A DNA stretch of 32,000 nt from Staphylothermus hellenicus DSM 12710 (GTDB taxonomy: Archaea > Thermoproteota > Thermoprotei_A > Sulfolobales > Desulfurococcaceae). The notes under the pieces were generated by a model. That model was not told the DNA's origin and searched no databases. It worked only from the letters and a program-made list of their open reading frames with translations. The DNA is taken from the NCBI RefSeq assembly GCF_000092465.1, contig NC_014205.1, positions 900,001 through 932,000 on the forward strand, written 5' to 3'. The position numbers and the translations under genes were made by a program. Positions 548 through 32,000 of the stretch are shown here, piece by piece. The stretch's first letter is position 1, and each line of letters opens with the position of its first letter.

Positions 548-635
548 CTACATTAGTTTTCCTGGTTTTAATCTAGATAATGTATTAGAGAAATATGAAA
601 TTATCCCTTCAAAAACCTATGTTATTAAAATGTTT

Positions 636-2159
636 CTAGGCTTTAATGTATTGTTCAATTCCTTCTTTCAATATCTTCTTAACTTTATGTTTAGCGTATC
701 TCAAGAACATTTTTAGACCCAGTCTTACCGGGTATAGATATGTTTCTTTCAAGTAGAACTTGTTCATTATATCTTCTGCCCAGTATACTGTGTGCTCGAA
801 TGTTTTAAGCATTACGTCTATATGTTCTCTTGTAATATGATCTCTTAGGAACCATGTGTTCTTCTTCAAAGCACCCATTGGAACAAAGAACATCGGTATT
901 ATTACGCTTCTATAAGGTTTTAACCTGTCCATCAACTCCGCTGTTTTAACTAGATCGTCAGGTTTCTCTTCCGGAAGACCAAGTATAATTGTAGCAGCTG
1001 GTATAATTTTGTTTTCATGCATAATCCTAAATGCATCCTCAACTATGTCAGGCCATTTCTCCGCCGGATAAGGCGCTGCTTTAGCAGGCATTATTATTTT
1101 TGCAAGCCTTGGACTGCCTGTTTCAATACCAACTTCTACTCCGAGGAAGCGTCTATGATCGGATAACACATATTCATTCATAAGCTTAGATATAAGTCCA
1201 TACTCGTCTTCAGCATATTTAATAGCTGCTAAGCTTGCATGAGACCATGCAAACTCTTTTTTCTCACCTAATTCTTCAAACACTGTTTTGTGGAGATTAA
1301 TTAGTGGTTCAGGCCTTGGCTTAACACCGTCAGCACCATATAATAGTACGTCTTCGCTATGAAGAATAACGCCTTTAGTTCCCCCGCGGAGATTAATTCT
1401 TATCTCTTCCCTAATTTTCTCCAAAGGAATAAACCTGAGAGGCCTGAGGGTTACACTACAGAATTTGCAGCCGCGCGGGCATCCACGCATAATCTCTATA
1501 AGCCCATTAACGCTTGGAGCCTTAATATTCGGTATCTCCTCGATACTTGGAGCATCTCGTGGACCAACATATATATAGTCAGGTAAAGGCTCATTATTCA
1601 ATGCTTTATCTACAATATCAACAATTACCCTTTCAACTTCTCCATCAATAACTGTGTCAACACCCCATTTCCTCCAAAGCTCCAGCTCCCATAACCACTG
1701 CCAAGCCGCTGGGCCGCCCGCTATTATCTTGACCCCCTTCTCCCTGGCTTTCCTAATAACCGGGCTATTCATGAACCTTTTAAAACTCAACCTGTTAACA
1801 GGTTCTTTACCTGTTAAACTCCACCACTCACTACTTGGAGGCCCATAGGCGAAGTAGTCGTGGTGACCTATCATTAGAATCTTCATAGTATCCAAGTACT
1901 TATGTATATAGTCGGGATCAATTATTGCAGCATTATATCCTTCATCAACAAGTTTTGCCTCAACCTTCCTCATACCATATGGTGCTTCTCTAGGCCTACC
2001 ATACTCGTCAACATCAATTTTTGGAGCTGCAATCCACATCCATAGTTTCTCAGGCACACCTATAGCTGGCCCGGTAGCTATGAAGCCTAAGAATTCTTTT
2101 CCATGATGATTGCTCATCATTGTTCTATCTGTTGTTAAAACTATTTCAAACCCCTCCAT
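636..2159 (-). CDS. Radical SAM protein with N-terminal B12-binding-like domain
   Basis: ORF track 636..2168. CxxxCxxC cluster motif GCPRGCKFCSV. The N-terminal region (MEGFEIVLTTDRTMMSNHHGKEF...MILMIGHHDYF) resembles the B12-binding-domain radical SAM families of archaea. I prefer the ATG at 2157-2159 because GGTGA (2165-2169) sits 5 nt upstream; the track start is a GTG inside that SD. Confidence 0.85.
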   Translation of the reverse strand: MEGFEIVLTTDRTMMSNHHGKEFLGFIATGPAIGVPEKLWMWIAAPKIDVDEYGRPREAPYGMRKVEAKLVDEGYNAAIIDPDYIHKYLDTMKILMIGHHDYFAYGPPSSEWWSLTGKEPVNRLSFKRFMNSPVIRKAREKGVKIIAGGPAAWQWLWELELWRKWGVDTVIDGEVERVIVDIVDKALNNEPLPDYIYVGPRDAPSIEEIPNIKAPSVNGLIEIMRGCPRGCKFCSVTLRPLRFIPLEKIREEIRINLRGGTKGVILHSEDVLLYGADGVKPRPEPLINLHKTVFEELGEKKEFAWSHASLAAIKYAEDEYGLISKLMNEYVLSDHRRFLGVEVGIETGSPRLAKIIMPAKAAPYPAEKWPDIVEDAFRIMHENKIIPAATIILGLPEEKPDDLVKTAELMDRLKPYRSVIIPMFFVPMGALKKNTWFLRDHITREHIDVMLKTFEHTVYWAEDIMNKFYLKETYLYPVRLGLKMFLRYAKHKVKKILKEGIEQYIKA

Positions 2160-2176
2160 ATGTTTCACCCCCCAAT

Positions 2177-2572
2177 CTAGATCTTTACGACTTCTATCCC
2201 TTTATTTTTGAGAAAACTAACTAGTTCAGCAAATTCTTCCTCAACAACCCCGTATACAAGCTTGTTCTGAGCATGGAGATCATTAATTATCTTCTCCAAC
2301 TCTTCAAAGTTAAGGTTATGATATCTAATTGTAAGAGAATACACAATATTATTCTGTATGAGGCTCCTAATATTCTCTATATATAATGGCCTCGGCTTAT
2401 CTGTGACAATATGCAGTGTAAATCTACGCTTATTATGCTTATTTGCAAGTCTCACTAACTCGCTATAAATAGCCCCGCTTCTATCAGTATCATAGTTTTC
2501 CTCGCCCCCCACTCCTATAATTACATGTATATTGTCTTCCTCCAAAACCTTTAGATACTCCAAGGCAATCAC
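2177..2572 (-). CDS. Hypothetical protein (131 aa), co-operonic with the radical SAM gene
   Basis: ORF track. It ends 8 nt before the radical SAM SD/start and begins 15 nt after the upstream regulator stop. No motif recognised. Alternative start TTG 2561-2563, 5 nt downstream of GGTGA (2569-2573). Confidence 0.6.
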   Translation of the reverse strand: MIALEYLKVLEEDNIHVIIGVGGEENYDTDRSGAIYSELVRLANKHNKRRFTLHIVTDKPRPLYIENIRSLIQNNIVYSLTIRYHNLNFEELEKIINDLHAQNKLVYGVVEEEFAELVSFLKNKGIEVVKI

Positions 2573-2587
2573 CTTTAAACACGCAGT

Positions 2588-3019
2588 TCAGGTTTTTCCA
2601 AGATATATTACCTCGTGAAGCCTACGCGAATATGAAAGCAAAATATTTGATAGCTCACTATTATTCGTTTCACTTGCAGCAAAGTCTATTCTAGATTTAA
2701 GCTCGCTGAGATGCTTAAGAATCAGTCTTGCCAATGTATCTCCGTCAGTATAAAACAATTTCTTCCTCCCAACCTTTTTAACTTTAACTAATCCATTAAA
2801 AGCTAAATGCTTTAAATGTGTGCAGAGATGACTTTTAGCATAGCCTGTTTTCTGCGAAAGCTCGTTAAGGGATAATGGTATGGATTCCTTTATCAAAACC
2901 GCTAATGCAGAAGCTGCTACCCCAGGCAGTCCCAGAAACATTAATAAGTCAACAAGTGATCTCATCCCTTCCTCACCCATTCGTATTGTTACTAAATTTG
3001 CGAATTTTAATACTCTCAA
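2588..3019 (-). CDS. Winged helix-turn-helix transcriptional regulator (ArsR/TrmB-like)
   Basis: ORF track. The segment LSLNELSQKTGYAKSHLCTHLKHLAFNGLVKVKKVGRKKLFY is a typical HTH plus wing. The true start may be an internal ATG (M14 at 2978-2980 or M19 at 2963-2965). Confidence 0.7.
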   Translation of the reverse strand: MRVLKFANLVTIRMGEEGMRSLVDLLMFLGLPGVAASALAVLIKESIPLSLNELSQKTGYAKSHLCTHLKHLAFNGLVKVKKVGRKKLFYTDGDTLARLILKHLSELKSRIDFAASETNNSELSNILLSYSRRLHEVIYLGKT

Positions 3020-3099
3020 ATATATTATATTTTTGTGTTAGCAATATATTAATTATTCTATAAGAATTATTTAAACCGTTATAAAAAACGATAATGTTT

Positions 3100-3543
3100 T
3101 TATTTTTTCATAATATTTTTAACATGATCCATGAATTTACTCCAAGAAACTATAGCTCTTTCATGAATGCCTTCTCCAACCACTATGTCGTTAAGCATGC
3201 ATTTTACTCTAAACAATACCTTGTTCTTCTTAACCTCTATAATTTCTGATATGAACCTAACTTTTGAACCAACAGGTGCTGGTGCTTTATGATACACATC
3301 TACATGTATACCTACACTGGTATATTCCTCTCCTAAAAACCGATCAAGCAACCGCTTCGAATTCTCCTCCATCAACGCAATCATTCTAGGAGTACTAAGA
3401 ACACCAATCCCCTTATCCAACAAGAACCTTGGTGCATCATTTATAGATACAACATAATCCATTTCCCTCCGCAAACCAGCTCGTATACTCATATCTATCC
3501 ACCCATTGAAGACCATTCTTCTGTTTAGATTTTTGGAAGCCAT
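3100..3543 (-). CDS. Hot-dog fold thioesterase superfamily protein
   Basis: ORF track. LSTPRMIALMEENSKRLL...GIHVDVYHKAPAPVGSKVRFISEIIEVKKNKVLFRVKCMLNDIVVGEGIHERAIV matches the pattern of fluoroacetyl-CoA-thioesterase-like / 4HBT hot-dog proteins. Confidence 0.65.
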   Translation of the reverse strand: MASKNLNRRMVFNGWIDMSIRAGLRREMDYVVSINDAPRFLLDKGIGVLSTPRMIALMEENSKRLLDRFLGEEYTSVGIHVDVYHKAPAPVGSKVRFISEIIEVKKNKVLFRVKCMLNDIVVGEGIHERAIVSWSKFMDHVKNIMKK

Positions 3544-4022
3544 GAATACCTATGGTTATTTAACAATATTTTAGTTAATGTATTCAATTTACAAACCCCC
3601 AATAACAAGTATGGTTCTGAGAACGTAGATGAAAAGCCCTAGGAGCCTTAACAGTCTTCTCTACAAAGAAGAAAACCACCTAAAAAAGGGGAAGCAGGTG
3701 CAAAACAATACGCGGGCAATCGCTTTCTCTAAGAATAATCCAGGATACATAACAGATTTATCTCTCTTAAAAATATTAACACCGGCCTTAACATATTAGA
3801 ATCTTAACCAGTAAGAAAAATCTATCAAAAAAACCAATAAACTATTAAGTTATTTATAAGTATATCATTGAGAACATACTTATTCTATAATGGTTAACAT
3901 GTTCTTCTATAAACAGATAATTTTTAAGTAGGGAACTTGTTTAAAATATTAGGTAAACATCTGTTAATATTGCATGATGAAGAAATATGGGTAGGACGAT
4001 CATATAAGACGTTGCTGATATT

Positions 4023-5438
4023 ATGTCAGAGCCTCATATTTGGAGACATGGAAAAACATGGATAAAAATACTTGCCGCTACTGCAGTTATTGAGTTAGGC
4101 ACCATAGGATTCTATATTATAGGTATATATACAGGTTTCTTAAAGAGCGGAACTCTTAGCCTTCTAGAATCTTCTTTAGAAACTATTCTTTTAGGCATAC
4201 TATTTCTCCTATTCATTATAAGTTATAAGTTATTGAGACGCATCAAGGTTTCAAGCATATTATTTTATCAGAAATACTTTGCTTTACTTTTCTCGACGCT
4301 GGATATGATCGTATTACTCGAGTTATTTGAAGATTCAGGTATTGTCCAGTCTAAAATGTTTCCTTATACACTAATAAATGATGCATTATTAGTAATAATA
4401 TTAGCCAGTTTCTTAGACCTCGTATATGATCTAATGATTACTTCTGCCACTAGGGAGAAGAGAAAATTAATGCATTCCCCCTTAACCATGTTATCTTTAT
4501 TCATTGTTTTAGTACCCATTGCTTTATTTTTCATTGTATTAACTATATCTAATAAACCAGTTAAACTAGAAGCGTATACTGTAGGCGACATGCTTATTGG
4601 TTTATCTTTCATAATTGTTCTACTCTATTATTCGATTAGAATATACAATTTTATATTATATATTGGGCTCCATGATTATGCTGATACTGTGACTTCTCTG
4701 ATATTATTATTTATTGGATATAATATTGGAGATATTATTGATAATTTTCTGGGTAAAAACCAGCTATTAGTGATTTATATATATTTTGCAATTGATTTAT
4801 CATTGATATTAACGTTATTAATAATAATTTTCAACGGATTATTCAATTTGTTCACCACCGTAGATCCCCTTATTCTAAGAAAAACACTCAGGAATTTCCA
4901 TATATTAATTAATACATCAATAGATGATCCAATCGTTTTTAATTCCAGGATTTTCTCAATGATCCGTATATACTTGAATAAGGTAGGGGGCGTTAAGGAT
5001 AAGATTCTCCTAGTTATCGGTGAACTAAATACTATTCAAAAGATCATTTTACGTGCTACTCTAGGAGATATTCAAGTAGTTAATGTTAGTATTAAGGAAT
5101 ATGGAGGGTTTATTTCCAGGGTAGGGGTTAAAGATGAGATCATAAATTTGATTGAATATTATGAAGCTGCTGCTTCACCTACCCATATATTAGGCGTATT
5201 GAACGAGGTGGTTGATAAGTATAGTGATAAACAAGTAATTGTTCTCTATAATACATTGACAGACTTAATCTTAATGATGGGTACTAGGAGGACTTATCTC
5301 GCATTGAGAAATATTCTGCTCAGTAAAGCATTGAGCCAAAGAATTACAGGCTCCTTCTATGTCATAATCGAAGACGTTCATAGAAAAAGCGATATAGAGT
5401 TATTTAGGAATATTATTCCTAGAGTTATAAGGTTTTAA
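4023..5438 (+). CDS. Polytopic membrane protein with about 190-aa soluble C-terminal domain, function unknown
   Basis: ORF track, ATG start. It has about 8 hydrophobic helices in residues 1-280, then a mixed alpha/beta domain (KILLVIGELNTIQKII...QVIVLYNTLTDLILMMG). The architecture recalls archaeal DUF835-type proteins, but I cannot verify that. Confidence 0.7.
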   Translation: MSEPHIWRHGKTWIKILAATAVIELGTIGFYIIGIYTGFLKSGTLSLLESSLETILLGILFLLFIISYKLLRRIKVSSILFYQKYFALLFSTLDMIVLLELFEDSGIVQSKMFPYTLINDALLVIILASFLDLVYDLMITSATREKRKLMHSPLTMLSLFIVLVPIALFFIVLTISNKPVKLEAYTVGDMLIGLSFIIVLLYYSIRIYNFILYIGLHDYADTVTSLILLFIGYNIGDIIDNFLGKNQLLVIYIYFAIDLSLILTLLIIIFNGLFNLFTTVDPLILRKTLRNFHILINTSIDDPIVFNSRIFSMIRIYLNKVGGVKDKILLVIGELNTIQKIILRATLGDIQVVNVSIKEYGGFISRVGVKDEIINLIEYYEAAASPTHILGVLNEVVDKYSDKQVIVLYNTLTDLILMMGTRRTYLALRNILLSKALSQRITGSFYVIIEDVHRKSDIELFRNIIPRVIRF

Positions 5439-5476
5439 TTATTGATTTTAAAATAATCCTTATTTGGTGAAAGAAT

Positions 5477-6325
5477 TTGAAAGCATATGTCTCCATAGAT
5501 ATTGAGGGGTTACCCGGTATAGCATCTACAACCATGGTTTCTCCTGGTTATACCCAGTATAGCCGTGGATCAAAAATTATGACAATGATCGCTAAGGAGA
5601 CAGCTAGGGCATTGCTGAATAATGGTTTCGATAAAGTAGTTATTGCGGATAGTCATGGATATATGACAAATATTGATTATTTAGAACTACCCAGGAATAC
5701 TTCTCTAATACAGGGCTTTCCGAGACCATACTCTATGTTGACAGGGCTTGATAACTCATATGATTCTGTATTATTTATAGGATACCATACAGCTGCTGGA
5801 ACAATGCATGGTTTCCTAGATCATACCATGAGTAGTAGAGTGTTCGCTGAAATAAGATTGAATGGTAGAAGAGCTAGTGAGTACTTGATCAATGCTCTTG
5901 TAGCTGGTGAGAAAGGTGTTCCAGTAATACTTGTTGCAGGTGATTCTCTGCTGAGAGATGAGGTTTCCAAGCATACTCCATGGGCTGTATTCATCGGTTT
6001 AAAACAGGGAATAACACGTTATGCAGCAATATATGAGAGCTTTGATGATGTTCTCGATAAGCTCCGGGAAGGAATTGTTGAAGCAATTAATAGGCTTAGG
6101 AGTGGAGAGGTAAAACCATTAGTGCTTGATAAACCCTATACTGTAGAAATAATGTTGAGAGACGAACTAGTGGGGGACGTGCTGGAAACATGGGATATAC
6201 TTGAAAGAATAGATGCTTATAGATTTAGATACGAAGCGAGCAATGCACATAGAGTATTAGCAATTATAGAACTTATAGCGTTTATAGGTTATGGTGTGTA
6301 TGCATTAAGGGAAAGGCTTAGATAA
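5477..6325 (+). CDS. Peptidase family M55 (DppA-like D-aminopeptidase)
   Basis: ORF track. The N-terminus MKAYVSIDIEGLPGI, ADSHGYM and IGYHTAAGT match conserved blocks of the M55 family. TTG start at 5477, with GGTGA (5466-5470) 6 nt upstream. Confidence 0.8.
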   Translation: MKAYVSIDIEGLPGIASTTMVSPGYTQYSRGSKIMTMIAKETARALLNNGFDKVVIADSHGYMTNIDYLELPRNTSLIQGFPRPYSMLTGLDNSYDSVLFIGYHTAAGTMHGFLDHTMSSRVFAEIRLNGRRASEYLINALVAGEKGVPVILVAGDSLLRDEVSKHTPWAVFIGLKQGITRYAAIYESFDDVLDKLREGIVEAINRLRSGEVKPLVLDKPYTVEIMLRDELVGDVLETWDILERIDAYRFRYEASNAHRVLAIIELIAFIGYGVYALRERLR

Positions 6326-16247: not shown

Positions 16248-16436
16248 TTCTTACACCATATATTATATATGTATAAACACTGAATATTAGGATTAGCTAA
16301 TAGTTTAACAGCTAATAATAACATATTATAAAACCTAATATTCACTAGTGAATAGAGGATCTTATATTTTTGAAAAGAATTTAACTTGTATATTTCTATA
16401 TTGTTTAGATGAATACGTATTAGTAGATGATGCGGT

Positions 16437-26468: not shown

Positions 26469-26840
26469 GTGGATATACAAGGTTTTAACGGGATCGCCGA
26501 GTTGTTATCGCTTAAACATGTTGGTAAACTTAAATTATTGGCTAGATCAATTGTGTTCCTAGCAGGATATATCTTATCCCCCCTCTCATGGTGGAACGAC
26601 TTATTCGTGAATATACCACTCGCATACTTGCTCGCAACCCTAATCCATAGCCTGGCAGGAATTGATTTCCCAATATTATTCAGCACAGGCTACGCACTAA
26701 CAAATATTGCTGGAATACTAATAATGAAAATAAGCATTACAGGCATCAACAAGAAAAACATGTTGAGAGACCTAATACTAACAATACTCTACTCGATCAC
26801 AGCATACATCATACTAGAAAACATCCCCGGAATACATTAA
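26469..26840 (+). CDS. Small membrane protein (3-4 TM), function unknown
   Basis: ORF track (GTG start). Clear hydrophobic helices (IVFLAGYILSPLSWW, IPLAYLLATLIHSLAGI, ALTNIAGILIM, LILTILYSITAYIIL). The overlapping minus ORF 26399..26686 looks like a shadow, though this is not certain. Confidence 0.55.
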   Translation: MDIQGFNGIAELLSLKHVGKLKLLARSIVFLAGYILSPLSWWNDLFVNIPLAYLLATLIHSLAGIDFPILFSTGYALTNIAGILIMKISITGINKKNMLRDLILTILYSITAYIILENIPGIH

Positions 26841-26895
26841 GGGAAAAATTGTTTAAAAAATAGTTATTATTGGATTACATAGGACTAACTCATCT

Positions 26896-27093
26896 TTACT
26901 TAGCATACTCCTTATATAACCAGCCCTTCTCAGTCCTAACAACAAGCCCAGCCTTCTTCAAATCCTGGAGTCTCCCACGAATAGTATTATAGTTTAGCCC
27001 TGTAATTTTCTGGATCTCCTTGGGAGACAATGGCCTCTTCTCCTTCTTAAGCACCTCTAATATTATCTCCTTCGCGGTCTTCCTCTCACTCAT
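26896..27093 (-). CDS. Small winged-helix DNA-binding protein (65 aa)
   Basis: ORF track 26896..27177. I prefer ATG 27091-27093 (MSERKTAKEIILEVLKKEKRPLSPKEIQKITGLNYNTIRGRLQDLKKAGLVVRTEKGW), with GGGGAG 8 nt upstream. Classic helix-turn-helix-wing layout. Confidence 0.65.
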   Translation of the reverse strand: MSERKTAKEIILEVLKKEKRPLSPKEIQKITGLNYNTIRGRLQDLKKAGLVVRTEKGWLYKEYAK

Positions 27094-27311
27094 AACAATC
27101 TCCCCACAAACAATCCTTAACCACATGATCCTTATGATTTCATGGTTATTAAACTTGATCCCAAACCTAACAACCAAGACAAAGACACAGAGAAATCAAA
27201 GCTAACACCACTAGAAAAACATTATAAACAAACCAGAAACAAAACCACCAAACCAGAAGAAATAAAGGGAAAAGAGGGGGTTCAACACATATTTTGAAAA
27301 GACCAGAAAAC

Positions 27312-27329
27312 GAGAACTCCCCGGTTCTC
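27312..27329. repeat. Hairpin/palindrome motif copy 1: GAGAAC-TCCCCG-GTTCTC
   Basis: Read directly: perfect 6-bp arms with a 6-nt C-rich loop. Same family as copies at 27376, 27614, 27764, 29409 and 30340. Confidence 0.8.
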
Positions 27330-27375
27330 AATATAGATGAAGGGCTTGATCATGTATTAGCCCCCCGCATAATTA

Positions 27376-27394
27376 GGGGAACCGGGGAGTTTCC
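27376..27394. repeat. Hairpin motif copy 2 (opposite orientation): GGGGAAC-CGGGGA-GTTTCC
   Basis: Read directly. The arms pair with one G:U if transcribed. Followed by ATGATC, as in other copies. Confidence 0.75.
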
Positions 27395-27424
27395 ATGATC
27401 TAGACATAATCCAATAGAAGCAGT

Positions 27425-27583
27425 AGCCCCCTCTACATGAAGTATTTTGTAGGAAATCCTAATAATGTATCTTATAAGAATGGAGAGCTGGAAACACCTT
27501 GAGCACCCTATATGTTTTTATAGAATCCCCCTAACAACACTTCAAGGATATGGATTATAACATGATCCATTTATGAGGGGGCT
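27425..27583. repeat. Long-range GC-rich inverted repeat AGCCCCCTC (27425-27433) / GAGGGGGCT (27575-27583)
   Basis: Perfect 9-bp complementarity, read directly. The G/C runs stand out against AT-rich surroundings. Confidence 0.7.
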
Positions 27584-27613
27584 GATGTGTTTAAAAGATA
27601 GTGTTTAAATAGT

Positions 27614-27631
27614 GAGAACCGAGGAGTTCTC
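27614..27631. repeat. Hairpin motif copy 3: GAGAAC-CGAGGA-GTTCTC
   Basis: Read directly: perfect 6-bp arms. Confidence 0.8.
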
Positions 27632-27661
27632 AAAAACATAAGCATCCCAAACAAAAACCAT

Positions 27662-27734
27662 AGCCCCCCTCACCAACTAGGAGAGATGAAAATCCAAGAG
27701 ATATCAATAAACGCTTTTTCATGAATAGGGGGCT
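27662..27734. repeat. GC-rich inverted repeat AGCCCCCCT (27662-27670) / AGGGGGCT (27727-27734)
   Basis: Complementary with one bulged C, about 56-nt loop. The flanking CAT...ATG extends the stem. Confidence 0.65.
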
Positions 27735-27763
27735 TTATGTTTTTACAGGATTAGATCTTGTTT

Positions 27764-27783
27764 GGGGAGCCGGGGGGTTCCCC
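27764..27783. repeat. Hairpin motif copy 4: GGGGAGC-CGGGGG-GTTCCCC
   Basis: Read directly. The arms pair with one G:U. Followed by ATAGATCAAC, which is mirrored at 30331-30340 in the right arm. Confidence 0.75.
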
Positions 27784-27917
27784 ATAGATCAACAAACATT
27801 AACAACCCTTACACCCCCCTCAACAAGAAACAATATCGATACATCTGTAAACAATAATACATAGAGCTTTCTTCTCAGATTTTTCTTTAGAAAAGCCTTG
27901 TATAAAAGTTGTTGGAG

Positions 27918-27923
27918 AAAAAA
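27918..27923 (-). terminator. Oligo-T tract downstream of the frameshifted pilin gene (candidate archaeal terminator)
   Basis: The minus strand reads TTTTTTCTCCAA about 22 nt after the stop. The same TTTTTTCTCCAA string follows the paralogue. Confidence 0.4.
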
Positions 27924-27944
27924 GAATAATGTGAAATATTTGTT

Positions 27945-28019
27945 TTATGGTAGTGTTACTGTTGCTGGATACTGTCCGCCGCTAGCAGTATGAATAAGAA
28001 TACTGACAGTCTCACCACT
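27945..28019. repeat. Left copy of 75-nt near-identical inverted repeat (3' end of frameshifted pilin gene)
   Basis: The reverse complement differs from 30101..30175 at 3 of 75 positions (hand alignment). Encodes SGETVSILIHTASGGQYPATVTLP*. Confidence 0.85.
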
Positions 28020-28735
28020 AGCAAATTCTTCGGTGACAATCGGGTTAAATTCGATTATGAAATCCACACTATCTAATTCACTTCCACTATCACTATCATA
28101 AAGTTTTATGTGCCATGTATAGATACCTGGATTCTCGGGCAACTGTACATTTTGTAAGGACAAATCATCCGATTGACCACTTGCAATTTCCTTTGTATCC
28201 GATGTTGCCGAAGGATTGGTTTCGGGAATCTCAACATAGACATTACGGCTACCCTGCTGTTCATCATTTTTAACCGTTACAGTTAATGTGGCTGTTGTAC
28301 CAGGCCCTCCAATGACTATATCGGGATACTTTGAAATATATACATTTGTATTGGCTGGCTTTTCTCTAGTAGTAGAATGGATCATTATTTGATCATTTAT
28401 TGGTTGGCCCGTGCGTGTTAGATAGAATAGTATTTCTGTTTTCTCTCCAGGGTTTAGTGTTTTGCTGTATGTTATTGTTCCTGGTTTGTTGTTTATGAAT
28501 ATATTGTCTATTGTTGCTGTTTTGTCCCTGTATTCTTAACTATTACATGAACTATCCAGTACTGATTATTACTACTATCTGTTTTGCTTTCAGCATAAGC
28601 ATTTACTACTTCTAGCTTCTCAACACCAGTAAAACTACCTGTTAATCCCGTGATCCACAATGCTACAGCTATGCTGATCGCTATAGCAACTGCTACTATG
28701 ATCACGGTTGCAATAACAGGTGATATAGCCTTCAT
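27945..28735 (-). pseudogene. Type IV pilin-like (class III signal peptide, Pilin_N) protein interrupted by a 1-nt frameshift; carries an extra Ig/CARDB-like module
   Basis: Track ORFs 28508..28735 (MKAISPVIATVIIVAVAIAISIAVALW...VKNTGTKQQQ*) and 27945..28385 are two frames of one gene. The second frame is open from 28530 and reads ...TATIDNIFINNKPG..., collinear with VKNTGTKPVTIDGVFINNKPG of the intact paralogue. Relative to that paralogue, one C of the Pro codon is missing next to 28519. Repaired length is 263 aa. Confidence 0.7.
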
Positions 28736-29408
28736 ATCGCTTACACCTCTTAATTCTCCCTTTTAATTATCCTCGTCATTACTTATTATATCCATGCATA
28801 CATATATGCTTAACTACTTAGATGAAAATTCTTCATGATCATCCAAGTCTATTTAATATGTATATTTTCATGTTTATTCAAAGATCCCATGGTTCTAGAT
28901 AATCTATAAGATATGGATGAGCTACGGATCCATAGAGAGGGATTGCAGATTTGTTCCCATATATGCTTCTTTTGAAAGATCCTAGATACATGTATAGGGT
29001 GCTGTGTCTTTATTAACTATACTGTAATAAGGATCAATGTGGCATGGTTTAGGCTTTAATAATGCTTATGAACTAGGTATTATGTTTCACAATAACATAA
29101 GTATTTATCTCAGCTGATTCATTATGGTTTATCAAGTGTGAAAATACAAAGTAAAATATGTGAAGCATGTTCTTCAACATAATTGTTGTAGTTTATTAGG
29201 AGAAATTGTATCTCTCAGAAAACATACCTCCTCACAGCATATAAAGAGCTTAAACACCACCCATACATTTCTCTCACATACACTATTCTCTTAAATATAA
29301 GATAGAATGAAACATGCATTACAACTAGCATTTACTAGGTTTTATCAGCCCCATCCCTCACTATCGGAAGAGGGGATTGGAGAAGGGTAAAGAACTCTCT
29401 CACAAAGT

Positions 29409-29425
29409 GGAAACCCCCGGTTCCC
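29409..29425. repeat. Hairpin motif copy 5: GGAAAC-CCCCG-GTTCCC (in the spacer between the two pilin genes)
   Basis: Read directly. GTGGAAACCCCCGGTTCCCATAG compares with the reverse complement of copy 2, ATGGAAACTCCCCGGTTCCCCTAA. Confidence 0.7.
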
Positions 29426-29489
29426 ATAGCATGACCCTGTCCAAAAACACGTAACCCTCTCCCATTAAAAACTATGATCTCTCCTCCCC

Positions 29490-29526
29490 CTGCTTCAGAA
29501 AAAGAAATTGATACTGAGCGAAGCAG
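29490..29526. repeat. Stem-loop CTGCTTC-N23-GAAGCAG in the inter-pilin spacer
   Basis: 7-bp perfect inverted repeat, read directly. About 125 nt upstream of the intact pilin start codon. Confidence 0.55.
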
Positions 29527-29650
29527 TGTTTTGAGACAGGATATAGATAAACATTTAAGCAAAACGTATTAGTTGTATAAAAACATGTATTAGTAATCAT
29601 AAACTTTAAATCATCAGATAAGAAGAATATTAGTATGGGTGATCATTTTT

Positions 29651-30175
29651 ATGAAGGCTGTAGATCCCGTTATTGCAACTGTTATTATTGTTGCTGTTGC
29701 TATTGCTATTAGTATAGCAGTAGCACTATGGATAACAGGATTAACAAGCAGCTTCACAGGCGTTGAGAAACTAGAAATAGTAAACGCATACGTAGTTAAT
29801 GTTGAGGATACTTCTCCTGATGATACAAGTGTAGATCATCCTGGATGGAATATAACTGTAATAGTTAAGAATACTGGGACAAAACCAGTAACAATAGATG
29901 GAGTATTCATAAACAATAAGCCTGGAGACGCTGGTAAAGTATATACCAAATATGTTTCTAATCCTTCTAGTGGTAATCCACATGATACAAATCCGGTGGG
30001 AGCAGGTTTAACAATAAATCCTGGGGAACAGAAAACATTATACTTTTATCTAAGTACTGTGGAAAATGACTCGAATAGTCCTGTAAGCGATAAATTCTCT
30101 AGTGGTGAGACTGTTAGTATTGTTATTCATACTGCTAGCGGTGGACAGTATCCAGCAACAGTAACACTACCATAA
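29651..30175 (+). CDS. Type IV pilin-like secreted protein (class III signal peptide, Pilin_N/DUF1628-type N-terminus)
   Basis: ORF track 29639..30175. I prefer ATG 29651 (MKA/VDPVIATVIIVAVAIAISIAVALWITG), which gives the short basic leader plus hydrophobic helix typical of prepilin-peptidase substrates. GGGTGA lies 9 nt upstream. Confidence 0.8.
   Translation: MKAVDPVIATVIIVAVAIAISIAVALWITGLTSSFTGVEKLEIVNAYVVNVEDTSPDDTSVDHPGWNITVIVKNTGTKPVTIDGVFINNKPGDAGKVYTKYVSNPSSGNPHDTNPVGAGLTINPGEQKTLYFYLSTVENDSNSPVSDKFSSGETVSIVIHTASGGQYPATVTLP
30101..30175. repeat. Right copy of 75-nt near-identical inverted repeat (3' end of intact pilin gene)
   Basis: 72/75 identical to the reverse complement of 27945..28019. 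Encodes SGETVSIVIHTASGGQYPATVTLP*. Confidence 0.85.
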
Positions 30176-30198
30176 GAAAGATAGAAGCTATTAAATAA

Positions 30199-30204
30199 TT
30201 TTTT
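30199..30204 (+). terminator. Oligo-T tract downstream of the intact pilin gene (candidate archaeal terminator)
   Basis: TTTTTTCTCCAA about 24 nt after the stop codon, conserved with the left arm. Confidence 0.4.
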
Positions 30205-30311
30205 CTCCAATATTTTTTCAGAGGGCTTTTCTTGAAAATATATTTGAGAGAAGCGTCTACGCATCGTTGTTTATGGTTGTATTGTTAATATGGTTTCTTG
30301 TTAAGGGGACG

Positions 30312-30529
30312 TGGGGGATTGCGATTTTTGTTGATCTATGGAAACTCCCTGTTCTCATTGATCAATGATTAATTCTTAACCGTACATGCGCCCTCAATGA
30401 ACTGTTTTTGCTGATGTCCTAGAGTCTTAATTGATGAGAGAATTAGGAGTTCATTTACATTTGTTATGGTTTGTTAGAAATCACTGATTTCCCGAATAGG
30501 TACAATGATCAAGTATGTTGCAACCCCCA
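30312..30529. repeat. GC-run inverted repeat TGGGGGATTGC (30312-30322) / GCAACCCCCA (30520-30529)
   Basis: Complementary with one bulged A. Lies in the flank downstream of the intact pilin gene. Confidence 0.55.
30340..30356. repeat. Hairpin motif copy 6: GGAAAC-TCCCTG-TTCTC (downstream of intact pilin gene)
   Basis: Read directly. It is the positional counterpart of copy 4 in the inverted duplication (shared GTTGATCTATGG context). Confidence 0.7.
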
Positions 30530-30593
30530 TATCTATGGAGTGCTGGGATTTTATTGTGTTTTGAAGTGCTTTGTATTTTTCCTGTATATTTGA

Positions 30594-32000
30594 TTAAGCG
30601 GTCTTTTGTTTTATGTGTTTTTGTATTTTTATGGTTAAGTATGCTGTGATGGTTGTTAATATGATTGTTGGGAGGGCTGAGAAGTGTATGATGTAGAAGC
30701 TCCATAGGCTGTGGTTTCCTATTATGTATAGGGTTAGGTACATGGTCCATATGGAGTAATATGATAGTAGGAGTTTTCTAAGCTTATCTATTCTTATAGT
30801 CCATGGCATAGTTATTATTCCTAGAATGAATCCACATAGGTAAACTATTGGTAAACCCATGCATTTCACTGGTTGATGATTTACTGGGTTTATCCATAAG
30901 GTGAAAGATTGCCTGCCTAGAAGCCAGTCTATCGGTGAAGATGAAATTGATCCTATGCTTTTTGTCGATAAGTGCCAATGTATAGCATCTACTATGGATG
31001 CTTGGAACCATTTCTGGAACCCATAATAGTTTATGAAAGGAACCGAGAACAGTATTAATAGTAATGGGAACACTACATAGTATCTGAGCAACGTTCCGAA
31101 AGCGTGTCTTAACTTGTAAAGAATATCTCCTCTTTGAAAGAATCCCTCAATGAATTCAGCTGGTGCAATGAATAATCCAGAAAATTTTATAAGACCTGCT
31201 AAGCTGAACAGAACTGTTCTAGCCACACTGGTTTTGAGTGAAGTGTATGGATATTTTATGAATACATAAACACCAACAACTGTAAATACTGCTAGGAAGG
31301 GATCTAGCATCGCTAATACTCCAACAGTGTGGTATGTATTATCAAAATACATGATAATAGGTGTTATGAGAGACAATAAGACAGCATGTTTTCCTCTAAG
31401 GAAAACTCTGAGTATCTCATATGTTATGAGATATGAGAATGAATATATGAGAGCTGTTGAAACAATACTTGGAATCCTCCAAGAAGCCGGGTTATCGCCT
31501 AATAAAACAATAGATAGCATAATAAAATACTTACCTAGAGGAGGATGTTCAAGGTTAAAGTATTCATTAATACCCCCCTTATCAGGCAAAGCCCATCCAG
31601 GAATAACATCTAAAACACTATAATTTAACCTATTAAAATCCCTAACAACATCGTTGATGGAGCAATTCTTCTTTAGAGAAACATATACAGCATTCAAACC
31701 ACCAACATATAAGCTCCTAGTAAAACTACGATTATCCTTCACAACAGTAACCCTAGCAACAAGTGAACCCCTATATTCATCTTCAACAAGACTAAAACAT
31801 AGCTGACCAGAAACACCATTTAAAATAGATGTATTAAAAGGCTTATCCAATACAACAGTATATAATGAACCAGCAGAACTATTCACCCTAATAGAGTCGT
31901 AACCAAAAATCTTATACAAAATATTCCTAGCAGAAGAAACATACCAAACCTCATCAGAGACATAACAACTCTTAAAACCAAAACCACGAAACAACTCATA
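30594..32000 (-). CDS. GT-C fold glycosyltransferase of the PMT/GT39-like (dolichyl/polyprenyl-phosphate-sugar dependent) family; 5' end beyond window
   Basis: ORF track 30594..31994; the frame stays open to the window edge. Loop-1 acidic motif SDEVWY, hallmark EHPPLGKY followed by WRIPS, more than 8 TM helices, and a late SSSPIDWLLGR block, as in PMT-family enzymes. Confidence 0.75.
   Translation of the reverse strand, partial: YELFRGFGFKSCYVSDEVWYVSSARNILYKIFGYDSIRVNSSAGSLYTVVLDKPFNTSILNGVSGQLCFSLVEDEYRGSLVARVTVVKDNRSFTRSLYVGGLNAVYVSLKKNCSINDVVRDFNRLNYSVLDVIPGWALPDKGGINEYFNLEHPPLGKYFIMLSIVLLGDNPASWRIPSIVSTALIYSFSYLITYEILRVFLRGKHAVLLSLITPIIMYFDNTYHTVGVLAMLDPFLAVFTVVGVYVFIKYPYTSLKTSVARTVLFSLAGLIKFSGLFIAPAEFIEGFFQRGDILYKLRHAFGTLLRYYVVFPLLLILFSVPFINYYGFQKWFQASIVDAIHWHLSTKSIGSISSSPIDWLLGRQSFTLWINPVNHQPVKCMGLPIVYLCGFILGIITMPWTIRIDKLRKLLLSYYSIWTMYLTLYIIGNHSLWSFYIIHFSALPTIILTTITAYLTIKIQKHIKQKTA

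Follow-up and report, generated by a model that had tools for sequence, protein, structure and literature searches.

Young inverted tract in two divergent pilin-like paralogues of Staphylothermus hellenicus, one of them a pseudogene

Why should two divergent pilin-like genes resemble each other well beyond their stop codons? The question is raised by a locus of Staphylothermus hellenicus DSM 12710, in a stretch of 32,000 nucleotides (nt) of its chromosome (the window; NC_014205.1, positions 900,001–932,000), for which a sequence-only reading had described two type IV pilin-like paralogues with shared non-coding flanks and had proposed that these flanks hold a co-duplicated functional element. 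Here we find that one of the two genes is a pseudogene, and that the similarity between them is of two different ages. The shared flank is probably a passenger of the younger event, rather than a conserved cis element.

Two divergent pilin-like genes, one inactivated

The genes lie on opposite strands and point away from a common spacer:

29651–30175, plus strand: intact 'short' pilin paralogue, an open reading frame (ORF) of 174 amino acids (aa) with a class III-type signal peptide (MKA-VDPVIATV...), an N-terminal helix and a β-sandwich
27945–28735, minus strand: 'long' pilin paralogue, inactivated; 791 nt with a 1-nt deletion at about 28526–28528
28736–29650: spacer of 915 nt, AT-rich, with both promoters
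27945–27977 and 30143–30175: 33-nt exact inverted repeat, the last 10 codons plus stop; short-read contigs end here

Both genes begin MKA(I/V)(S/D)PVIATVIIVAVAIAISIAVALWITGLT, and the earlier description of two pilin-like genes diverging from a 0.9-kb spacer with a common MKA start holds, except that the left one (28735–27945) is not an ORF. It reads as two ORFs in different frames, of 75 aa (28508–28735) and 146 aa (27945–28385), and alignment of left GGGACAAAAC-AGCAAC with right GGGACAAAACCAGTAAC places one missing base in the left gene. Once this base is put back, the left gene encodes 263 aa, and the protein agrees with that of the right gene at both termini. The left gene is orthologous to the 273–277-aa genes of relatives, whose proteins match it in tblastn only across the two frames, while the right gene is of the short type. 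The right-gene product has 100% identity to an S. hellenicus protein (P0001). The same two left-gene ORFs are called on Logan contig SRR3925462_94, present in 3 samples. Three independent short-read assemblies equal the window base for base, their contigs stopping only at 27945–27977 and 30143–30175, so the frameshift is real and the inverted, divergent arrangement is not an assembly artefact. Loss of a single nucleotide has thus turned the left gene, a 'long' paralogue, into a pseudogene.

Programmed frameshifting was considered for the lesion (28519–28529, minus strand) and rejected for want of a heptameric slippery site. The long frame would be restored if tRNA-Lys re-paired by −1 on the CAAAAC of the lesion, and low-level frameshifting may occur.

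Canonical pilins carry an N-terminal class III signal peptide, with a short charged leader, a small residue at −1 and a hydrophobic helix (PMC11178815). The N-termini of both genes, MKA-(I/V)(S/D)PVIATVIIVAVAIAISIAVALW, fit this pattern, and profile hidden Markov models score just under their cut-offs (Pilin_N 20 against 25.2 bits; TIGR02537 18.9 against 20). NCBIfam UpsA is the top model for the Staphylothermus pilin, though far below its curated cut-off (28–38 against 130 bits). An AlphaFold model of the right-gene protein, built from 47 homologues, has a predicted local distance difference test (pLDDT) score of 88.2 and comprises a 29-residue N-terminal helix (residues 6–34) followed by nine strands forming a β-sandwich. 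The best Foldseek matches in the Protein Data Bank are all archaeal (crenarchaeal) type IV pilus subunits, 8q30 from the Aap filament of S. acidocaldarius and then 8fk7, 6w8u, 6w8x and 6nav, with E 1e-6 to 4e-4 for the best folds and template modelling (TM) scores of 0.5–0.67 on the target. phmmer matches AapB (8q30, the best sequence match, E 2e-5) and Iho670. The model therefore supports assignment of the right-gene protein as an Aap/Ups-like archaeal type IV pilin-like subunit. As in the Aap and Ups pilins of Sulfolobales, a short positively charged leader precedes a hydrophobic N-terminal helix and a β-sandwich head. Identity to the solved Aap/Ups filaments (8Q30, 6NAV, 6W8X, 6W8U and 8FK7) is only 16–21%, and Staphylothermus is not known to form such a filament.

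Extent and age of the inverted similarity

The genes were thought to be embedded in a 3.3-kb imperfect inverted duplication, but self-alignment resolves two arms of about 0.26–0.27 kb each, with the following components:

28596–28736, minus strand: N-terminal arm of the left gene, old paralogy; pairs with 29650–29790 at 79% nt and 94% aa identity
29650–29790, plus strand: N-terminal arm of the right gene, partner of 28596–28736
27773–28038, minus strand: younger inverted tract, left arm; takes in the final ~94 nt of coding sequence, the stop and ~172 nt of 3′ flank as far as hairpin d
30082–30349, plus strand: younger inverted tract, right arm; pairs with 27773–28038
30199–30210, plus strand: TTTTTTCTCCAA, oligo-T terminator-like tract (T-run), 23 nt after the stop; left copy at 27912–27923 (minus strand)

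The first blastn match (28479–28736 against 29926–29650; 71.6% identity, E 2e-40) covers the N-terminal coding part. The second (27773–28038 against 30349–30082; 75.7% identity, E 5e-49) spans the C-terminal coding part and runs on for ~172 nt beyond both stop codons, bearing out the claim that non-coding DNA is shared outside the coding regions. We scored the similarity by local and global alignment against shuffled sequence (500 and 2000 shuffles). From stop to hairpin, the non-coding similarity reaches z = 23 (local) and z = 14 (global), scores that 0/500 and 0/2000 shuffles attain. Over the 80 nt after the hairpin it drops to z = 2.8 (22/2000 shuffles), no better than the palindromic module located there (see below) scores against unrelated copies of the same module, and past the module end no similarity is left (z = −0.15). 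The flank homology, put at ~300 bp in the sequence-only reading, is thus firm for ~175 nt up to the hairpin (z 14–23), marginal for the next 80 nt and absent beyond the module. Of its shared blocks, TTTTTTCTCCAA, GGCTTTTCT, GTTTCTTGTT(G/A)AGGGG and GTTGATCTATGG plus the hairpin do occur and keep the same order, while CCC..TCATGAA and TATGGTTT lack statistical support. The two halves of the spacer, which form the upstream regions, are unrelated (z = 0.4); by eye, its last ~60 nt resemble the promoter of the short gene in relatives, CTTTA(T)AAATC..ATCAG.

The two matches differ sharply in age. Over the first 47 codons of the left and right genes, the proportion of differing silent sites (pS) is 0.72, which is saturated, and that of non-silent sites (pN) is 0.05. 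Over the last 29–33 codons, pS is 0.14–0.24, and the 3′ flank from T-run to hairpin differs at a proportion p of 0.168 of aligned sites, plus 17 gap columns. Flank divergence is indistinguishable from that of the C-terminal silent sites (Fisher p 0.4–1.0) and far lower than that of the N-terminal silent sites (72%; Fisher p 7e-10). With the N-terminal silent sites saturated and the C-terminus and flank equally young, the gene pair must be old and the tract must have become alike much later; since then it has apparently diverged at a neutral rate. The most diverged piece of the tract is the hairpin itself (d versus f, p 0.32). In 165 nt of 72% identity, chance should leave exact runs of about 12 nt, and the 'conserved blocks' therefore need no special explanation. 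The flank similarity had been taken as not explained by the protein genes, and hence as a sign of function. This step does not follow, given that the divergence of the flank is indistinguishable from that of the neighbouring silent sites and that the flank is absent from the related loci examined.

For comparison with relatives we used loci L007, L008, L009, L010 and L041, an S. marinus-like contig (L040), the S. marinus F1 locus (L012; CP000575 from 1,453,833), which starts in the 3′ part of an HD hydrolase gene, and a further contig, L020. A genome-collection scan with the pilin, in a collection that does not hold the source genome, returned only 3 distant loci. Three of the relatives (L007, L008 and L009) carry three paralogues in tandem (221–244, 277 and 156–162 aa), and in L007 and L008 a convergent PMT-family gene follows 43 nt after the last pilin stop. 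In the other two (L010 and L041) there are two paralogues, which share a strand and have about 1 kb of non-coding DNA between them. Since relatives hold their paralogues in tandem or on the same strand, the divergent orientation in S. hellenicus is, by this comparison, derived. The S. hellenicus flank is absent downstream of the orthologues in L007, L009, L010 and L041, apart from a generic T6 run, which takes the form T6(C/A)T and in relatives follows every pilin stop at a distance of 20–50 nt.

Within genomes, the paralogues are homogenised in patches. Both S. hellenicus copies read SGE where all relatives read SGQ, and their C-termini are 90% identical to each other but to any relative at most 80% (left) or 87% (right). 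In L009, the 277-aa and 156-aa genes share 87/87 C-terminal nt, and both copies read ATITLP, while N-terminal pS is 0.65; in L010 the pattern is reversed, with the two N-termini 99% identical and a C-terminal pS of 0.39. As far as sequence comparison can tell, such patchy homogenisation is the signature of gene conversion between paralogues. For the S. hellenicus tract, three features point the same way: similarity that passes the end of the coding region, a tract pS as low as the flank p, and a shared derived state (SGE).

We therefore consider it probable that a recent conversion or partial-duplication tract links the intact pilin gene to its inverted, frameshifted paralogue, has drifted neutrally since and ends in a palindromic repeat. 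The locus would be a rearranged, partly decayed copy of the pilin cluster that related Desulfurococcaceae carry in tandem, with the left 'long' paralogue inverted relative to that arrangement and killed by the 1-nt deletion. The N-terminal signal-peptide and helix similarity would represent old paralogy, maintained as selection acts on the protein. The final ~94 nt of coding sequence and the ~175 nt of 3′ flank would be a much younger inverted repeat. Its origin, in mechanism and direction, we infer: a gene conversion (non-reciprocal recombination) of one paralogue with the other, or a partial duplication. In S. hellenicus it would have run on into the flank before drifting at the neutral rate.

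Palindromic modules around the genes

The younger tract ends in a member of a family of palindromic modules, of which six copies (a–f) lie within 27268–30402, against 0.26 expected for the core pattern:

27268–27438: convergent double module a/b; hairpins 27312–27334 (plus strand) and 27376–27396 (minus strand); 57 and 52 bits
27569–27676, minus strand: module c; hairpin 27609–27631; 57 bits, with a mirrored half of 21 bits on the plus strand
27722–27827, minus strand: module d; G-run, 35 nt, hairpin 27765–27784, C-run; the left tract ends here; 51 bits
29364–29467, plus strand: module e; in the spacer, about 185–290 nt upstream of the right gene; 47 bits
30296–30402, plus strand: module f; hairpin 30339–30358, degenerate; the right tract ends here; 34 bits

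Each module consists of a G-run, (C)WTG(A)GAGGGGG, then 33–36 nt, a hairpin with the core AACYCCCCGGTT, about 30–35 nt and a C-run. Single modules (c, d, e and f) measure about 100 nt, and convergent doubles such as a/b about 170–190 nt. We count 13–14 copies in 5 contigs, all with the fixed 33–36-nt spacing from G-run to hairpin, and mirrored halves are detected on the opposite strand. The core is nearly invariant in 13 copies, which are only ~50–65% alike outside it. Both arms of the young tract end inside a module (d and f), suggesting that the modules probably mark the recombination boundary.

No copies occur in the other 28 kb of the window, nor in 20 kb of S. marinus F1. Further copies lie between the pilin paralogues of L010 and of L041. 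On the S. marinus-like contig L040, beside a winged helix-turn-helix (wHTH) gene, there is an orthologue of a/b together with an extra copy (209–282) that is absent from S. hellenicus. This contig, the best S. marinus-like one for the orthologous locus, ends inside the b-hairpin orthologue, short of the position of the pilin pair. It also carries, between the wHTH gene and the a/b pair, a DUF2283 gene and a 106-aa gene (a toxin-antitoxin-like pair of ~940 nt; L040 218–1160 versus window about 27162–27195) that S. hellenicus lacks. A metagenome scan for the G-run plus hairpin gave 26 matches, of which 25 are chance hits in GC-rich contigs and one, in the JGI contig L020, looks genuine; a scan for the convergent hairpin pair gave 0. 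The L020 module (1022–1130) lies 50–150 nt upstream of an archaeal RNase P RNA gene (622–970, minus strand; RF00373, 146 bits), so the modules are not restricted to pilin loci.

A coding role for the modules and flanks was rejected: the small ORFs over d and e are alike only through their DNA, and c and f carry stops in that frame. The modules hold no conserved ORF and, by eye, no consistent archaeal promoter lies upstream of them. tblastn with the pilin, K+ channel and other neighbouring proteins found nothing in the flanks, which by this measure are not recognisable as decayed genes. Rfam returned no match at the gathering threshold over the window, nor at E <= 5 over 26800–30800. Folding energies are alike on both strands, with z-scores of −1.5 and −2.3, and the two-sequence RNAalifold consensus is weak (−10.8 kcal/mol over 230 columns). 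In terms of covariation, the hairpin core is invariant and the outer positions are often mismatched. A replication origin was likewise rejected, with no Orc1/Cdc6 domain among the window ORFs scanned and a poorly fitting motif that shares only GGAAAC with the origin recognition box (ORB) consensus. A tRNA scan and blastn against phage and plasmid collections gave no match, and three viral-contig scans gave 0 matches.

By analogy, the modules are most likely repeats akin to miniature transposable elements with inverted repeats (MITEs) or to doublets of repetitive extragenic palindromic (REP) sequences (REPINs). For S. marinus, a putative MITE of ~260 nt with inverted repeats on either side has been reported, in 14 copies (PMC2678158); we compared the modules with it by description. 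Like these elements and like REP/REPIN sequences (PMC3116915), the modules are short and non-coding, with inverted termini and GC-rich hairpins; like REP singlets and REPINs, they occur singly or as convergent doublets (a/b, L010, L041 and L040). One site shows module presence or absence between the S. marinus-like strain and S. hellenicus, another MITE-like trait. In contrast to such elements, all six window copies are confined to 27.27–30.40 kb, with no evident target-site duplication or cognate transposase. Direct-repeat candidates seen by eye (AAAAC flanking a..c; CATTTGAGA flanking the L020 copy) are not consistent, and each is either rich in A or belongs to the module start. A TnpB search for genes related to the S. 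marinus MITE found only IS607-type TnpBs of other archaea.

Rival readings and the pilin neighbourhood

Several points weigh against a passenger flank and a single young tract. The neutral yardstick is small, with 3–6 differences in the 22–25 silent sites of the C-terminus. The gap of 21–23 nt between stop and T-run is only about 50–60% identical. With this dip, the similarity of the coding part and that of the flank may be separate patches; alternatively, the block in the flank may be a repeat unit of greater length, inserted behind each of the two terminators. Between L040 and the window, the a-b core is about 87% identical, compared with an average of 78% for alignable intergenic DNA, and some constraint may act on the modules.

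Of the other explanations, the one that survives best takes the conserved gene ends and the 3′ flank as homology arms through which a variable middle domain is exchanged, as an archaeal counterpart of pilin cassette variation. In its favour, patchy N- or C-terminal homogenisation is seen within four genomes, divergence in the middle domains far outpaces that in the non-coding DNA around them (L010/L041 and L007/L009), and S. marinus and S. hellenicus differ in the chromosomal sites at which paralogues are present or absent. We nevertheless judge it unlikely, as no donor and recipient pair with an exchanged middle domain was found, conversion at conserved ends is the expected by-product of their identity and needs no dedicated function, and here the left copy is a pseudogene and the flank repeat is seen in one genome only. 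The fuller version, in which gene ends and flank are working recombination handles that swap the pilin surface domain and the modules are a new REPIN-like or protein-recognised seeding element, is quite unlikely. If true, it would amount to archaeal pilin variation, for which viruses with pili as their receptors might be the driving force.

The known parallel is the pilE/pilS system of Neisseria, where gene conversion acts in a multicopy pilin locus with a conserved 3′ Sma/Cla repeat. The likeness lies in the conserved gene ends, the variable middle, the shared non-coding stretch downstream and the non-reciprocal exchange. Unlike Neisseria, S. hellenicus has no silent cassette array, only two copies of which one is dead; nothing shows the flank to be required for exchange, and the flank repeat is found in a single genome.

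The related loci offer observations of their own on the pilins. Between L010 and L041 (3667–6008 versus 669–2702), intergenic DNA is 80–94% identical while the pilin middles are 14–40% identical with large indels, and between L007 and L009 (1–2400 versus 3513–5900) the corresponding values are 96% for non-coding DNA and 28–60% for pilin middles. This contrast suggests rapid replacement or diversification of an exposed domain. In S. marinus F1, the pilin paralogue Smar_1493 (149 aa) sits in a ~765-nt segment (L012 9850–10615) between PmbA/TldD genes and a DEAD helicase, and this segment is missing at the syntenic S. hellenicus junction (window about 16321–16367); pilin paralogues are thus gained and lost at different places on the chromosome. 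In L010, an element of the IS607 type that encodes a serine recombinase and TnpB (1126–3055, minus strand) lies about 600 nt upstream of the long pilin gene, and homologues 75–82% identical to this TnpB are widespread in Thermoprotei metagenomes.

Another explanation treats the block from T-run to module end (~200 nt) as a mobile repeat inserted independently after each terminator, with the coding similarity a separate matter. The identity dip between stop and T-run would fit, as would the end of the block in a member of a repeat family with inverted termini, the 14 copies of a ~260-nt putative MITE in S. marinus (PMC2678158) and the site at which a module is present in the S. marinus-like strain and absent from S. 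hellenicus. However, the ~100 nt from T-run to module start are common to d and f only and not to the other copies, and no target-site duplication is evident. Both T-runs lie 21–23 nt from the stop, versus roughly 35–50 nt in relatives, which fits common descent of the 3′ end, and C-terminal silent-site divergence equals flank divergence. Independent insertion is, on balance, distinctly improbable.

We consider it very unlikely that the shared flank and hairpin are a functional cis element or small RNA, co-duplicated and kept by selection. The homology past the T-run is real, the modules are GC-rich islands in an AT-rich hyperthermophile genome that fold with an outer G-run/C-run stem around the hairpin, the core AACYCCCCGGTT hardly varies over 13 copies, and the a-b core stays ~87% identical across species. 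Yet the flank has diverged as much as the silent sites next to it, the hairpins of d and f disagree at 32% of their sites, the f stem is poor, and the flank is missing from the related pilin loci examined. The Rfam search remained empty even at E <= 5, the folding z-scores are only −1.5 and −2.3 with a weak consensus structure, and neither a strand preference in folding energy nor, by eye, a consistent archaeal promoter upstream of the modules is seen.

That the inverted arrangement is an assembly artefact is extremely unlikely. The 33-nt exact inverted repeat does interrupt k-mer assemblies at both arms, but Logan contig L006 covers 27948–30137 with zero mismatches and carries the starts of the two genes on either side of the spacer, pointing outwards, and L004 and L005 connect the left flank to 27974. 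The data behind the finished, published genome were 462x Illumina, 132x 454 and paired ends of 28 kb (PMC3236042), and the genes would stay divergent even if the segment between the arms were flipped.

The locus had also been called a self-contained surface-filament module. In a self-contained type IV pilus operon, genes for an assembly ATPase and a membrane platform accompany the pilin genes (PMC11178815). One of the two pilin genes is dead, and no assembly ATPase or platform gene (T2SSE/T2SSF-type) appears in the Pfam lists of the scanned ORFs of the window and syntenic loci, some of which have no Pfam match; the description is thus not upheld. The neighbouring genes encode a wHTH regulator, an HD hydrolase and a PMT-family glycosyltransferase. 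The 65-aa winged-helix regulator (26896–27093, minus strand) adjoins the locus and is 92% identical to one that precedes a K+ channel and pilin cluster in L009. The PMT/PMT_2-family (GT-C) glycosyltransferase (30594–31994, minus strand) is convergent with, and adjoins, the short pilin gene in all related loci seen (L007 2281–3819; L008 1972–3510; fragments in L009, L010 and L041). We regard it as a candidate pilin-modifying enzyme.

A recent conversion or partial-duplication tract between the paralogues, which we favour, makes the locus a modest new example of known processes, namely paralogue gene conversion and pseudogene formation in a small hyperthermophile genome. It also shows that 'non-coding conservation' beside duplicated genes needs a silent-site yardstick before function is proposed. 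As by-products, the analysis brings to light an uncharacterised palindromic repeat family in relatives of Staphylothermus, a pace of change in pilin middle domains far above that of the non-coding DNA around them, and a PMT-family glycosyltransferase kept beside pilin genes across genomes.

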